Part shown: piece after piece, positions 2,531 to 38,229 of the stretch
Layout of the letters: each line of letters opens with the position of its first letter
How positions within the stretch are numbered: the stretch's first letter is position 1
UHGV virus genome: UHGV-0078430
From: a virus
DNA length: 40,470 nucleotides
Strand: one strand, 5' to 3'
Translations under genes and position numbers: made by a program
The notes under the pieces: model-generated
The model's input: the letters and a program-made list of their open reading frames with translations, nothing else
Database searches by the model: none
Told to the model about the DNA's origin: nothing

Positions 2531-4579
2531 TTAATCATCTTCTGGGAATGATGAACTTAATAGCGTAGCTTCTGCATATTGGTCGTAGATATTACTGCTA
2601 AAGGTCATAAAGCTGGTTTCATCTGGTTTAATGGCAACTTCACCACCAAGTGAAACTTTCACAGGCTCCTGAATACGTTTGCTCAAAGCACTAATTTCAT
2701 CTCTCAGGCTTTGGATATCCGTATTCGTTAATGCCGCATCTTGTCTCATGGTGATTAATTCTGGATGCTGGAAGTTAGCAAGATTCATAGCTGCACTACT
2801 AAACCAACCTTTAACATCGTCCATAGTGAACACTGGTTTAAGTCCAGACTCTTTAGCTAGCTCTGGTAATTTAGCTTGTGCTTCCATTCGTTCAGGTGTA
2901 GAAGCTAATCTCTCATAACCTGCATAGATAGCACTACCAGCTAATAACATATTCCCAAGATTAAACCTTGATGGTTTCCCGTTCTTTCTATTCACGTTAT
3001 CCGCTGTAGTATCAGCGACCTGACCTAATCTTGTGATAGCAGTCATAAGCCCGTAAATACTTCTGGTTACACCAACAACTTTATTCACAGCAATAACACC
3101 AGCCAAGACTTTTAAACTATTAATCAAGCCAGAACCTAAAGCATCAACTACTTTCTTTTGTTCATCGGTTAAACCACGGTAAGCTAATGTCACCTCATCA
3201 AAGAATGCTCTTACCCTGTAGCTGATATCAGTCAATGAATCCACACCACTTGACATAGAAGTCATGAGACTACCAAGAGATTCACCAAGACTTTTACCGC
3301 TTCCACCTAAACTATTTAAAAGATTGGTTAAGCTTCTTGTGAAATCTTGAAGACCATTTTCAGAACCTCTGAAGATACTATCAAGCGTGGTATTCCAAGA
3401 GTTTTTCAGGTTCCCTAGTTGTGCCTGTGTACTTTCTGAAATAGCTTTCCAGCCGCCTTTAGCGGTGATTTGTCTATTCAGTTCCTGAGTGACCTTCTGA
3501 AGAGTATCGGCAGATTTTAAAGCCCCCTTCTTCATGGCATCAAATAATTCCTGTTCAGTCTTTCCGGTTGCTTTAGCGAATACCTGAACCATACCAGGAA
3601 CAGCTTCAGCTAATTGCCCCTTAAGCTCTTCAGCCATAATCTGACCCTTACCAGCCATCTGTGATAATGCTGTCAGTGCTCGCTTAATCTCTTCTTCACT
3701 TCGACCCATTAAACGAGAATAGCCAATCATATTTCTAAAAAGTTCTTCAGAACCTTGAATACCCATAGATTCTTTAGCTGAAGCACCAAAACCAGCAAAC
3801 TGTGATTGCAGTTCAGCGATATCTAAACCCGTTGTTTGAGCTAATGACTTTGTGAAATCTTTTACTTGACCTGCATCTTTATCAAATACGAAATCAATAC
3901 TTCTTTCCGATGATGCACGTTGAAGGCCAACTTCCATTACTCGCTGATAAGCGGATAGTACAGCCTGAAAGCTGATAAATGCACCTGCTGCTCTAACCGC
4001 TGCTGAAGACAGGTTATCAAGGCTGCTAGCTGCTCTGTCACTATTAATGCTGGTGGATGTATGACCTCTGGCTTTAGCAATTGCTTCTCTGACTGAAGCG
4101 TTTAACTGAGCTAACTTCTCATTGAATTTTGAAGAATCCATTGACCCGGCTTTAGCAGATAGCCCGTAAAACTGACTCTTAATGTATTTCTCGACAATTG
4201 GGTTAAGGCCTTTTAGCTTGCTCATATTCGCTGAGTAAGCTGCTGTGATTGCTCTGTTTCCGCTAATTCGTGGCTGTCTTGGTTGTTTTGGAGGATTAAC
4301 AGTGTCATTAAATCTGGTGGTAAACTGGAAAGCTTTAGTATTTCTTGCTCTCTGTTCAATCTTGTCAAAGGCCTTATTAAACTTCCTTTCAAGTTGCCCT
4401 AAAGAACTTGTCAAATTACTATCAAGCTGTTTTGTATTAATCCTGAAACCTTTATTTAGGTTCTTTTCAATTCTTTGTGCTGACTGCAAAGCTGCCTTTT
4501 CAACTCTTTGCAGTCCCTTAATAACGTTCTCGCTGAAGCCTAGCTCAACGATAAAACTATCAACTTTAAATTGTGCCAT
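2531..4579 (-). CDS. phage tail tape-measure-like protein
   Basis: 682 aa, coiled-coil N-terminus, central region resembling tape-measure domain (GLDIAELQSQFAGFGASAKESMG ... ALSQMAGKGQIMAEELKGQLAEAVPG ... FAKATGKTEQELFDAMKKG), Gly/Ser-rich segment; assignment from recalled motif pattern. Confidence 0.6.
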   Translation of the reverse strand: MAQFKVDSFIVELGFSENVIKGLQRVEKAALQSAQRIEKNLNKGFRINTKQLDSNLTSSLGQLERKFNKAFDKIEQRARNTKAFQFTTRFNDTVNPPKQPRQPRISGNRAITAAYSANMSKLKGLNPIVEKYIKSQFYGLSAKAGSMDSSKFNEKLAQLNASVREAIAKARGHTSTSINSDRAASSLDNLSSAAVRAAGAFISFQAVLSAYQRVMEVGLQRASSERSIDFVFDKDAGQVKDFTKSLAQTTGLDIAELQSQFAGFGASAKESMGIQGSEELFRNMIGYSRLMGRSEEEIKRALTALSQMAGKGQIMAEELKGQLAEAVPGMVQVFAKATGKTEQELFDAMKKGALKSADTLQKVTQELNRQITAKGGWKAISESTQAQLGNLKNSWNTTLDSIFRGSENGLQDFTRSLTNLLNSLGGSGKSLGESLGSLMTSMSSGVDSLTDISYRVRAFFDEVTLAYRGLTDEQKKVVDALGSGLINSLKVLAGVIAVNKVVGVTRSIYGLMTAITRLGQVADTTADNVNRKNGKPSRFNLGNMLLAGSAIYAGYERLASTPERMEAQAKLPELAKESGLKPVFTMDDVKGWFSSAAMNLANFQHPELITMRQDAALTNTDIQSLRDEISALSKRIQEPVKVSLGGEVAIKPDETSFMTFSSNIYDQYAEATLLSSSFPEDD

Positions 4580-35593: not shown

Positions 35594-36061
35594 TTATTTC
35601 AGGCATTGCGTCCTGATGTATTCCTGCAGGTAGTTAACCTGCGCGGTTATCCTGTCGATTCCACTTCGGAGACGGTAATAATTGAGTTCAGCATCTGCTG
35701 TAAGTCTTGGGCTTTCTCCATCGCCCATGCTGCTGGCTCCGGTCGTTGACTTTGCACAGGTGGCGGCGACTTGCAGCCGCTTACGGCCAGCAATGACATC
35801 GCTATGCAGACGCTCAATGGTTTCTTTCGCATCAGCCAGTTCTCCGGTGTATTTGGCATCCAGTGCAGCGACATCACGCTGGCGGGTCTGCATGTCTTTA
35901 ATGGTGGCGGTCGCCAGGAGGAGTTTCTCAGTGGCCTTATCGCGCTGGTCTCTGTAAGTGATGGCGTTGTCGCGGTAGTGGTTCACGAAGAAAGCCAGTG
36001 CGCCGATTAACGCCAGCACCAGCAACTGCAGCCAGTAACGCTTAACCAGTGCGCTAATCAT
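35594..36061 (-). CDS. i-spanin (Rz-like)
   Basis: 155 aa, N-terminal TM helix, coiled-coil periplasmic domain; downstream of endolysin; contains embedded lipoprotein ORF. Confidence 0.75.
35647..35832 (-). CDS. o-spanin (Rz1-like lipoprotein) embedded in Rz
   Basis: 61-aa product [20 protein letters not shown]... with lipobox and Pro-rich mature part, entirely within the Rz gene in another frame. Confidence 0.7.
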
Positions 36062-36534
36062 GACAGGAACAGAGCTCGCTCTGCCTCCCGCCGACGTGTC
36101 AGCCCATTCAGCACCTTCCCACCAGCTTTATTCCAGCGCAGGAACTCATCGGCTGCACCAGCGTAATCTCCGGCGTTGAGTTTTCGCAGGAGAGTCGATG
36201 TCGACAATGACCGCGCACCGAGGTTATACGTGAACGACACCAGGGCATCGAACTGGCCTTGTGTCAGCTTCACCCTGACAACTTTCAGCACGTCATTCTC
36301 ATAACCAACAAGCCCTGTTTTCAGAAGCCTGTCAGCGGTTTGCTGGTCGATAGTCATACCGCGCTTTACTGGCTTTCCGTCAACCGGATGGGTCCAGCCA
36401 TAGCCGATGGTCCACGGCGCATCTCCCGTTCCGGGGTCGGGGTAAGCAGTCAGCCGACAACCTTCAAATTTTTTTATCAGAGCAATTCCGTCAGGACTGG
36501 TTTGCATCGTCAACTCCCGCCTTTTTTGCTGCAA
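36058..36534 (-). CDS. endolysin (GH24 lysozyme-like)
   Basis: [20 protein letters not shown]...WTIGYGWT motif typical of T4-lysozyme-like muramidases; true start may be internal Met (MQTSPDG). Confidence 0.85.
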
Positions 36535-36814
36535 GTTTTTTAATCAGATTGCCGATCGAATCGGTGCCGATGTATCCAATAAAGACGCTGGCTATGTAGG
36601 CGAGGTTGCTGCTCAGGCCGATAAAGTCCAGAAGGTCACGAACGAACCAGGCAATCATCGCGCACATCAGCGCATCAATTAGCGTTTTTGTTACCGCGCC
36701 GCCGTTATAGCGACCACGCAGATACGCCATGATAAAAGCCAGCATTGCACCAATACCCTGCTCCTTGGCGGCAAGTAGCGCAGCGATGAAATCTTGTTTG
36801 TATGGCATTTTCAT
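36491..36814 (-). CDS. class I holin (lambda S-like) with dual-start motif
   Basis: 107-aa product from MKM start, closely matches my recollection of lambda S ([27 protein letters not shown]...[21 protein letters not shown]); ORF trimmed from 36934. Confidence 0.85.
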
Positions 36815-36922
36815 AGGCCTCACCTCCGATTTTCCGGATGGTGCTGTGTGTGTTTGTAGGGGAAAGGCCGTCAGACTCTGATTGCTACATGGCATCTGAA
36901 AATGATATCTGCGGCCTGCAAT

Positions 36923-36946
36923 AAAAAAGCCCACGGCGCGGTGGGC
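36923..36946 (-). terminator. Rho-independent terminator
   Basis: minus strand gcccac-cgcgcc-gtgggc followed by U6. Confidence 0.45.
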
Positions 36947-36996
36947 AATAGAGGGTAGTGCGTTGAGCTTTTGCTCTTATGGTCCTGGTAGGTATT

Positions 36997-37071
36997 TGGC
37001 GGGACAGGAAGGATTCGAACCTTCGACCAATCGGTTAACAGCCGATCTCACAACCTCTGTGCTTCTGACCC
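36997..37071 (-). tRNA. tRNA-Asn-like (anticodon GUU), possibly phage-borne or degenerate
   Basis: manual cloverleaf: acceptor GGGTCAG/CTGTCCC (one T-T mismatch), D-arm with GG, anticodon stem ATCGG/CCGAT with loop CTGTTAA, T-arm GAAGG-TTCGAAT-CCTTC, encoded CCA. Confidence 0.45.
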
Positions 37072-37078
37072 TGAATGC

Positions 37079-37105
37079 AAAAAGCCCCTGCATTTCTGCA
37101 AGGGC
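37079..37105 (-). terminator. tR'-like terminator downstream of Q-position gene
   Basis: minus strand gcccttgca-gaaa-tgcaggggc followed by U5. Confidence 0.45.
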
Positions 37106-37189
37106 TTAAATGTGGTTCACACCGCTCCGCGCAAGGCATCTCCGCTGGTGGGTAAGCTCTTTCGCCTTTGACGTCCGAGCATATCTGAA

Positions 37190-37873
37190 TTATGCAGTTT
37201 CAAAACTCGTTTTCAAGTCTTTTTCGCAAGTTTTTGCATTTTCGAAGCCAAATTCATCTTTTAACGTGAAGAAGACAGCAGAATTAAACAACTCAATACA
37301 CCAGCGCACGCGGTCAATACATTGCTTTTCGGTCAGAAACGGCGCGTAGTAATATTGCATCCACCGTGCCATGTCATTAATGGTTTTCCTCCAGGTGTAA
37401 TAGTCCTTCCCTATCTCATACACGGGATTCCCCGGCTTGAAGGACTTCAGGATGATAGCCTCCATGAATGCAGCTTCCTCTTGATCCCCGGCGTTGCCGA
37501 TCAGGTCAGAAAGTGATTTCTTCGGCCAGATGATGGCTTTAGCCTGCTCAAACAACGCATCTCCGGTATAGCCAATTTTACGCAGACCAGACAGTACGGT
37601 AGCGATCCGCTCCTGCTGTTCGCCAGTCCAGCCGGTCAATATCATTGACCACATACCACCGCCACCTGAAAGGTGTTCTATTCCGCTGCCTCCATACATG
37701 CCGCCCCAGTGGTTCAGCAACGAACGAACCCAACGGCTTTGCGATGGTGTCAGTCGGCGGTATTTCCCCAGGTAAGATCTGCGTGGTGCTGCTGCCAGCG
37801 TCACCCAGGCGTTTTGCGGGTTGGTACGCTCAACAGACGCTTTCTGGTAATTGTTAATATCGGTGCGTGTCAT
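37190..37873 (-). CDS. putative late-gene regulator (antiterminator Q position)
   Basis: 227-aa product from ATG overlapping rusA stop (ATGA); located between rusA and tR'-like terminator/lysis genes as Q is in lambdoid phages; family not recognised by sequence. Confidence 0.45.
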   Translation of the reverse strand: MTRTDINNYQKASVERTNPQNAWVTLAAAPRRSYLGKYRRLTPSQSRWVRSLLNHWGGMYGGSGIEHLSGGGGMWSMILTGWTGEQQERIATVLSGLRKIGYTGDALFEQAKAIIWPKKSLSDLIGNAGDQEEAAFMEAIILKSFKPGNPVYEIGKDYYTWRKTINDMARWMQYYYAPFLTEKQCIDRVRWCIELFNSAVFFTLKDEFGFENAKTCEKDLKTSFETA

Positions 37874-38229
37874 TGTCCGTTCTCCCGAATGATGATCTGG
37901 CCTTTCTCGCCCCATAGCTTTGTAATGCGACAATCCCAGACACTGGAATCATCATCAAACAGGGCATCCATCAGTGCTTTAAGCATGTTGTCGCAGTCTG
38001 GTTTTGACTGGTGCGGCTTGCCGTTGAGCTGTTCACGCTTCTTTTTTCTCCAGCTCGGAGGCATTGGCATAACGAAGGTGATATGCGCGCCGGACTCAGG
38101 GAGATTGATTTTGCGCAGACGTGCTTCATCGCAGAATGCGCGGTAACGCATGACCGCAGGCCGTGTTTTCCATTTGTCGGCGCGGGTCATACGGGGCTTG
38201 CCGATCGGCGTGATGTCGTAAATTTTCAT
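37870..38229 (-). CDS. rusA: Holliday junction resolvase RusA
   Basis: 119-aa product MKIYDITPIGKPRMTRADKW...DCDNMLKALMDAL matches RusA family from memory; ORF trimmed from 38376. Confidence 0.8.
   Translation of the reverse strand: MKIYDITPIGKPRMTRADKWKTRPAVMRYRAFCDEARLRKINLPESGAHITFVMPMPPSWRKKKREQLNGKPHQSKPDCDNMLKALMDALFDDDSSVWDCRITKLWGEKGQIIIRENGQ

Follow-up and report, generated by a model that had tools for sequence, protein, structure and literature searches.

The stretch of 40,470 nucleotides analysed here (the window), from the viral genome UHGV-0078430, encodes a single transfer RNA (tRNA), which ARAGORN identifies as tRNA-Asn(GUU). The gene resides in a standard lambdoid late-operon leader, between a gene at the position of the late antiterminator Q and the holin gene, and all parts of this unit are transcribed from the minus strand. 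The gene probably specifies a functional phage tRNA-Asn that constitutes the second half of a conserved and portable module, in which a tR'-like terminator is followed by the tRNA. Over a 451-bp query that spans the tRNA, identity to Citrobacter phage Omnitron (CP115737) is 100%, and the sequence is referred to below as the Omnitron tRNA.

Identity and conservation of the tRNA-Asn gene

The original prediction, derived from the nucleotide sequence alone, had proposed a 75-nt tRNA-Asn with the anticodon GUU, a canonical T-arm and an encoded CCA end, and all of these features are borne out. The single ARAGORN call in the 40.5-kb window (36997-37071, minus strand) coincides with a full-length match to RF00005 of Rfam, which covers model positions 1-71 and scores 55.4 bits (gathering score 29, E = 2e-9). 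The sequence, GGGUCAGAAGCACAGAGGUUGUGAGAUCGGCUGUUAACCGAUUGGUCGAAGGUUCGAAUCCUUCCUGUCCCGCCA, contains a canonical T-arm (GGUUCGAAUCC), A14, G18G19, the G15:C48 pair, the discriminator G73 and the encoded CCA. Its anticodon loop, CUGUUAA, matches that of Escherichia coli asnT exactly. The identity set of the E. coli asparaginyl-tRNA synthetase (AsnRS) consists of the anticodon G34-U35-U36 and the discriminator G73, both of which the phage tRNA carries. The comparison with the host tRNA-Asn further revealed differences at positions 39 and 41 and no similarity detectable by blastn. Two stem mismatches are present, one in the acceptor stem (U4•U69) and the other in the D stem (G10•A25), in agreement with the one acceptor and one D-stem mismatch noted before, and the near-universal U8 is replaced by A8.

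The minimum free energy (MFE) structure is close to the cloverleaf, with acceptor, anticodon and T stems that agree with the Rfam model and a D stem in an alternative register. Support for the cloverleaf is furthermore provided by covariation among 23 distinct relatives: 95% of the cells are paired, slid controls pairing at 41-49%, and 11 of the 21 pairs have changed on both sides, a result equalled by none of 500 shuffles. With regard to the tertiary contacts, tRNAs normally carry U8 and A21, whereas A8 and U21 (window positions 37064 and 37052, minus strand) occur in the whole close family as well as in relatives from Aeromonas phages. More distant relatives that bear U8 have A21; the A8/U21 pattern follows lineage, and an independent covariation of the two bases is not demonstrated. 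The combination may represent a swapped 8-14-21 tertiary arrangement or a D stem of 5 bp including A14:U21, as the modelled MFE fold suggests.

A permissive Rfam scan of positions 36700-37400 retrieved no other RNA family, apart from one sub-threshold chance match (19 bits; gathering score 68). A remnant of a second tRNA behind tRNA-Asn was likewise detected in the window by neither ARAGORN nor Rfam, though relatives carry Thr, Arg, Gly, Phe or Met tRNAs there.

The tRNA is annotated as tRNA-Asn in the Klebsiella phages Chronis, GZ7 and others, and it is present but unannotated in coliphage HK639. Using blastn, it was found in 79 of 5,426 complete E. coli genomes, with one copy per genome, always on the chromosome and labelled tRNA-Asn by PGAP; in all four E. 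coli loci inspected, the location is a prophage late region. In the same 5,426 genomes the chromosomal asn genes were never matched by the phage tRNA, and a host-derived copy or attachment (att) site was ruled out on the grounds that only prophage copies were hit. A pattern scan of species-representative genomes located the family in 15 genomes from 9 genera of Enterobacterales, including Serratia, Klebsiella, Enterobacter, Cedecea, Apirhabdus, Atlantibacter, Lelliottia and Citrobacter. Moreover, a less strict tRNA-Asn pattern is matched by at least 120 IMG/VR contigs, and a part of these contigs carries family copies. Among 101 copies of the family, 75 share one identical consensus and 7 represent the Omnitron variant.

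The mismatches had originally been taken to suggest either a divergent phage tRNA or a decaying copy. The first of these alternatives is favoured, and the second is not supported. Pair 4:69 is U•U throughout the close family and U:G, C:G or U:A in sister lineages. The tRNA-Asn of Sf6 and HK446, otherwise divergent, possesses an identical acceptor stem (GGGUCAG/CUGUCCC) including U4•U69, and the acceptor mismatch is hence of old origin and has been retained. At pair 10:25, 22 of 23 sequences have G:C, and G•A is confined to the Omnitron lineage, where C25 was changed to A; this is also the one base by which the Omnitron tRNA departs from its closest relative (L119 type). In addition, pair 27:43 is A:U in Omnitron and U:A in the consensus, which constitutes a compensatory swap. 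The variant bearing both mismatches is 100% identical in seven loci, among them E. coli, Apirhabdus and IMG/VR contigs, although the upstream 1.3-1.5 kb of these loci are 89.7-99.9% identical and the downstream flank is replaced in two of them. A tRNA diverged to the extent of the upstream flank would be expected to show about 8 changes in its 75 nt, and none is observed. The fixed U•U, the lone change at 10:25, the compensatory 27:43 pair and the unchanged variant amid diverged flanks, together with the retained identity elements, favour a maintained divergent phage tRNA over decay.

It is accordingly very unlikely that the tRNA is a non-functional relic, carried passively between Q and the lysis genes, in which the mismatches and A8 mark the loss of function. 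Such a relic would agree with the two mismatches and A8 themselves, with an Rfam score lower than those of E. coli asnT (72.6 bits) and of the family consensus (63.9 bits), and with the existence of damaged family copies, namely a chimera in E. coli 730V1 and two loci without an encoded CCA. However, U4•U69 is a family-wide trait that is paired in relatives, only a single unpaired change separates the Omnitron tRNA from the L119 type, and the perfect identity of the tRNA extends over different host genera, while the flanks are about 10% diverged or swapped. The compensatory 27:43 pair also speaks against a relic, as do the intact identity elements, G18G19, T54-Psi55-C56 and G15:C48, and the truly damaged copies of the family look different from the Omnitron tRNA. 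In the copy of E. coli O19:H7 730V1 (NZ_CP061764, locus L007, 2005-2079), the 3' end of tRNA-Asn (…CCUUCACGGCCCACCA) equals the 3' end of the tRNA-Met(CAU) that follows tRNA-Asn elsewhere. This chimera displays two new acceptor mismatches and the discriminator A73, and PGAP annotates 67 nt of it only. It looks as though two cassette tRNAs had undergone a deletion or recombination at the T-arms that they share.

Some points nevertheless weigh against a functional tRNA under Q control. The G10•A25 mismatch costs about 7 bits, lowering the Rfam score from 62.7 in the closest relative to 55.4, and either this mismatch or A8 could impair folding or modification. The MFE stability of the tRNA does not exceed that of shuffled sequence (z = -0.59); poor z-scores against shuffles are usual for tRNAs. 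Lastly, the antiterminator activity of the Q-position protein is inferred from its match to PHROG 753 and from the position of its gene.

The terminator-tRNA module in the late-operon leader

As had been predicted, the tRNA is bracketed by a tR'-like terminator and a second terminator upstream of the holin, both of which comprise a hairpin and a U-run (Table 1). The hairpin of terminator 1, AAGCCCUUGCAG-AAAU-GCAGGGGCUU, ends 10 nt ahead of the tRNA 5' end. Terminator 2 is located 50 nt past the tRNA and about 105 nt ahead of the holin start, and the U-run after its hairpin begins with UUUUUU.

The linkage of the tRNA to the upstream terminator is fixed: in 94 of 94 family copies with enough flanking sequence, a hairpin with a T-run ends 10-12 nt 5' of the tRNA. 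These copies comprise 58 distinct upstream 50-mers, in which the stems covary and the U-tract and spacing are kept. Homology between phages begins at the terminator hairpin, and the module precedes different lysis cassettes and follows four mutually unalignable Q-position proteins. Since tRNA and upstream hairpin recur jointly in about 100 other phage or prophage loci, the arrangement is not due to chance. The gene order is the same in every annotated case, i.e. a Q-type gene, the hairpin, tRNA-Asn, optional further tRNAs and the lysis genes. On the 3' side, at least one terminator-like hairpin occurs within 700 nt of tRNA-Asn in 86 of 90 family loci.

Table 1. Late-operon leader and adjoining lysis genes in the window
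Feature	Position	Strand	Basis and remarks
tRNA-Asn(GUU), 75 nt	36997..37071	minus	ARAGORN and Rfam; CCA encoded, discriminator G73
Terminator 1 (tR'-like)	37077..37107	minus	Terminator scan; 11-bp GC-rich hairpin, stem-loop 37107..37082, then UUUUUG
Terminator 2	36919..36946	minus	Terminator scan; 6-pair hairpin 36946..36929, GCCCAC-CGCGCC-GUGGGC, then UUUUUUAUU
PR'-like late promoter with ~35 nt of initially transcribed sequence, candidate qut-like Q-loading region	37156..37224	minus	Scan and conservation
Q-position gene, putative late antiterminator, 227 amino acids	37190..37873	minus	PHROG 753 'anti-termination protein Q-like', E = 1.5e-57
Holin S, lambda family, MKM dual start	36491..36814	minus	PF05106, E = 8.6e-30; first gene of the lysis cassette
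Lysozyme	36534..36058	minus	PF00959, E = 2.1e-47
Rz spanin	36061..35594	minus	PF03245, E = 5.5e-39

The PR'-like promoter overlaps the end of the Q-like gene and consists of a -35 element TTGAAA (37216-37211), a 16-nt spacer and a -10 element CATAAT (37194-37189); no other sigma-70-like site was detected between positions 36000 and 38500. Omnitron and Klebsiella phage Chronis hardly differ in the block 37224..37156, while identity between the Q-position proteins of these phages (gp65 in Chronis) is no more than 71% and the adjoining downstream spacer is unalignable. This pattern is expected of a cognate PR'/qut unit, and the block would hence represent the PR'/Q-loading region.

A promoter of its own for the tRNA was considered and rejected, given that the gap between terminator 1 and the tRNA measures 10 nt and that the PR'-like promoter is the sole promoter-like site. 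As so short a gap cannot accommodate a promoter, and none was detected, polymerase would reach the tRNA only past terminator 1. The tRNA would thus be made from the Q-modified late transcript, or by basal read-through, and subsequently be released through RNase P cleavage and trimming at the 3' end; the invariable linkage between terminator and tRNA favours excision over an own promoter.

In the proposed mechanism, RNA polymerase would start at the PR'-like promoter and, without Q, stop at terminator 1, yielding a leader RNA of about 105 nt. The Q-like protein would modify the polymerase, which would then continue past terminator 1, across the tRNA and past terminator 2 and enter the genes for holin, endolysin and spanin as well as the virion genes. 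RNase P would generate the 5' end of the tRNA from this read-through transcript, whereas the 3' end would only have to be trimmed to the encoded CCA. Subsequently, the tRNA, which retains GUU, G73 and the host-identical anticodon loop, would be charged by the host AsnRS and decode AAC and AAU late in infection.

The fixed distance of 10-12 nt in 94 of 94 copies would also be compatible with a tRNA fold that mainly serves as a cleavage signal for RNase P or RNase E, by which the terminator-bearing leader is detached from the late mRNA and to which decoding is incidental; the constant location of the tRNA at the extreme 5' end of the late transcript, before the lysis genes, fits this explanation too. 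A mere cleavage signal, however, would not require the strict conservation of the anticodon loop, GUU, G73 and the encoded CCA, which counts against it. Moreover, partner tRNAs of varied identity are exchanged between cassettes, and lambda and P22 run the same operon without a tRNA (PMC8022706). A role confined to processing is thus highly improbable. Even less is to be said for a tRNA kept as a recombination or integration target, be it as an att-like site or as a mosaic junction, the probability of which is next to negligible. Frequent integration sites are indeed provided by tRNA genes, the Asn/Met chimera of 730V1 shows recombination between cassette tRNAs, and phage-phage homology starts at the terminator. 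Against this, the tRNA is full length, distant from the expected integrase/att region and unlike any host tRNA-Asn usable as attB; the covariation reflects selection on the RNA fold and not on DNA sequence alone, and among about 100 loci no element was seen inserted in the tRNA with duplicated 3' halves. The functional tRNA encoded behind a tR'-like terminator thereby remains the preferred explanation.

Among the 101 copies, the most frequent partner next to tRNA-Asn is Thr(UGU), with 38 cases, followed by Arg(UCU) with 31, Gly(UCC) with 12 and Phe with 2, and Met(CAU) occurs once. A minor Thr variant of these cassettes is one base off the tRNA-Thr of HK446. In HK639 (locus L001, ~2585-2665), tRNA-Asn is followed by a tRNA-Gly(UCC)-like sequence, which is not called by ARAGORN; its 5' half is as in the cassette Gly tRNA, and its 3' half presumably matches E. 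coli glyT. The same locus contains, ahead of the lysis genes (2922-3127), the small RNA STnc100 (52.6 bits in Rfam; gathering score 47).

Possible roles: supply of tRNA-Asn or escape from tRNA-cleaving nucleases

The benefit of the tRNA would most likely lie in a supply of tRNA-Asn that is independent of the host tRNA-Asn. This may take the form of a simple boost or of a substitute that is not recognised by tRNA-cleaving defence nucleases, the latter being slightly favoured. Compensation for rare Asn codons was considered and rejected: in the open reading frames (ORFs) of the window, which were picked mechanically and include some spurious frames, the AAC fraction of Asn codons is 0.59 and Asn accounts for 4.6% of residues, both of which are unremarkable. 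As both Asn codons are decoded by the same tRNA, codon bias is excluded as the driving force.

A plain supplementation, which corresponds to the classical view and by which more tRNA-Asn is provided for the late burst of structural-protein synthesis without any relation to host defence, is a serious possibility that falls somewhat short of being probable. The Asn and Thr contents of the window ORFs (4.6% and 6.7%) are slightly higher than the average values of E. coli (about 3.9% and 5.4%). In phage L, 24 of the 25 Asn codons of the major capsid gene are AAC, and supplementation was suggested by the authors (PMC8022706). The Arg(UCU) partner present in 31 loci likewise fits rare-codon compensation, with AGA and AGG making up 23% of Arg codons in the window. 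On the other hand, tRNA-Asn is encoded by four genes in E. coli, and neither Asn codon is rare. Supply also leaves unexplained why the phage copy is so unlike the host asn genes that blastn finds no similarity, and why the cassettes are enriched for the tRNase targets Asn(GUU), Thr(UGU) and Gly(UCC). As a separate observation, the share of AGA and AGG among the Arg codons of the long ORFs in the window, about 23%, is well above the E. coli level, and Omnitron is without the tRNA-Arg(UCU) found in 31 related cassettes.

Escape from tRNA-cleaving nucleases is suggested by the sequence next to the anticodon. The AriB nuclease of the PARIS system cuts E. coli tRNA-Asn(GUU), i.e. a tRNA with the same anticodon, next to a U36AAU39 motif, the cut falling between positions 40 and 41 (PMC12409363). 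In tRNA-Lys, the exchange U39A abolishes cleavage by AriB and A41C reduces it, and variants of the tRNA-Lys, tRNA-Thr and tRNA-Asn of phage T5 that are substituted there rescue infection (PMC12409363). At positions 36-41, E. coli asnT has UAAUCC, the Omnitron tRNA-Asn UAACCG, the T5 tRNA-Asn UAAGUU and the Thr partners of the cassettes UAAGCU or UAAGCG. Compared with asnT, the Omnitron tRNA thus carries C instead of U39 and G instead of C41, adjoining the AriB cleavage site. Furthermore, the targets of the P2 OLD tRNase include Thr(UGU) and Gly(UCC), and the Thr(UGU) of HK446, encoded at the same cassette position, is OLD-resistant and rescues sensitive phages (preprint 10.64898/2026.07.10.737580). 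The T5 tRNAs and the OLD-resistant Thr(UGU) of the HK446/T4/T5-like kind resemble the Omnitron tRNA in having anticodons of the target class and substitutions at or next to the 40|41 site. T5 differs in that it is a virulent phage with a large tRNA array and own promoters, whereas the temperate Omnitron carries a single tRNA behind a terminator. Concerning the anticodon nuclease HepS, Asn(GUU) is missing from the reported targets, and this case backs only the general idea of late-triggered tRNases (PMC13043305).

By analogy with these systems, the module of tR' terminator and tRNA-Asn, with or without Thr(UGU) and Gly(UCC), might represent a portable counter-defence cassette of temperate lambdoid phages. 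It would deliver, only in the Q-antiterminated late phase, tRNAs that cannot be cut by TOPRIM tRNases (PARIS AriB, P2 OLD) or by late-triggered anticodon nucleases, and the Omnitron tRNA-Asn, with C39 and G41, would be insensitive to AriB. This proposal is tentative and on balance doubtful, the evidence being suggestive but weak, and the Omnitron tRNA is regarded as a lead and not classified as a nuclease-resistant phage tRNA.

A number of considerations weaken it. A G31:C39 pair is common in tRNAs generally, Omnitron encodes neither a tRNA-Lys nor a tRNA-Thr, and the Arg(UCU) partner fits codon compensation better than counter-defence. Plain supplementation is conceivable in view of the Asn content of the phage ORFs, which is a little higher than the average of E. 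coli. In addition, the PARIS determinants were mapped in tRNA-Lys and not in tRNA-Asn, to which they are transferred here by analogy. Lastly, tRNA-Asn is only a secondary target of AriB, and tRNA-Lys and tRNA-Thr are necessary for full rescue (PMC12409363).

Neighbouring genes, related systems and significance

The placement of the tRNA between the Q-position gene and the holin, as originally described, is confirmed by the matches of the two gene products to PHROG 753 and PF05106. The length of the Q-position protein refers to the RefSeq ATG; the longest ORF starts at 37933, and the protein accordingly comprises 227-247 amino acids. Its gene is placed after those encoding NinB, a YbcO/DUF968-like protein and RusA, and before the lysis genes. 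Apart from PHROG 753, no sequence match was found in Pfam, NCBIfam or PDB. RefSeq labels an identical E. coli protein as 'hypothetical'. The four mutually unalignable protein types that precede the module are those of Omnitron/Chronis, HK639, GZ7/730V1 and EM18/FDA433, the first of which may constitute a structurally uncharacterised antiterminator family. The holin gene is equipped with the ribosome-binding site GGAGGUG at 36826-36820.

The occurrence of tRNAs at this position in lambdoid phages, to which the original prediction had alluded, is documented for Sf6 and phage 21 as well as for phage L (the latter in PMC8022706). In the GenBank record of Sf6, PR', qut, tR', tRNA-Asn, tRNA-Thr and holin are listed, each marked 'similar to phage 21'. 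Phages 21, Sf6 and HK446 share with Omnitron the order Q, PR'/qut, tR', tRNA-Asn(GUU) and holin. The tRNA-Asn of Sf6 and HK446 has in common with that of Omnitron an acceptor stem with U4•U69, G73-CCA, an anticodon loop with C39 and GGCUGUUAACC. Divergence is seen, however, in the D arm as well as in the anticodon stem, the variable loop and the T stem, and Sf6 is not among the top blastn matches. The Sf6 type carries U8, whereas the Omnitron family carries A8 and U21, and Omnitron itself lacks the Thr partner and has the extra G10•A25 mismatch. Judged from its sequence, the Omnitron tRNA represents a sister lineage of the phage 21/Sf6 tRNA-Asn, set apart by A8/U21 and by its arms.

In HK446 (NC_019714, locus L148, 5098-5253), a lambda-like PR' and tR' precede the same pair of Asn and Thr tRNAs, which begins no more than 3 nt behind tR' and both members of which are found by ARAGORN. 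The RefSeq record of HK446 annotates no tRNA there, and a single tRNA is given for this phage in a preprint (10.64898/2026.07.10.737580). Phage L encodes tRNA-Asn(GUU) 46 bp after the start of the late mRNA as well as Leu(UAA), while P22 has no tRNA there (PMC8022706). The likeness of phage L to Omnitron is taken from this description, and the two are set apart by the partner tRNA. In the description of phage L, the question was raised whether the tRNA is cut out of the late mRNA or made from its own promoter (PMC8022706).

A further parallel is offered by Shiga toxin (Stx) phages of the 933W type, in which the tRNA genes ileZ-argN-argO lie between Q/PR' and stx. There, too, tRNA genes of lambdoid prophages are part of the Q-antiterminated late transcript, 3' of tR'. 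Unlike tRNA-Asn, which is not a rare-codon case, these are rare-codon tRNAs (AUA, AGA/AGG), for which codon compensation is accepted.

Taken together, the gene is an ordinary constituent of lambdoid late operons that had been described before: the type of element, its position and even its acceptor stem are already known, and the exact sequence is annotated in RefSeq. The gene call alone adds little, as identical copies are annotated in RefSeq and the arrangement is known from phages 21, Sf6 and L. Beyond this, the coupling of terminator and tRNA in 94 copies argues for excision from Q-dependent read-through transcripts and bears on the question left by the phage L study. A mildly novel lead is provided by positions 39 and 41, which differ from the host tRNA-Asn and both of which governed AriB cleavage in tRNA-Lys. 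The cassette repertoire, with Asn(GUU), Thr(UGU) and Gly(UCC), has members in common with the target lists of PARIS and OLD, and positions beside the cleavage site differ from the host; this yields a hypothesis, amenable to testing, for the presence of one or two seemingly needless tRNAs in temperate phages.

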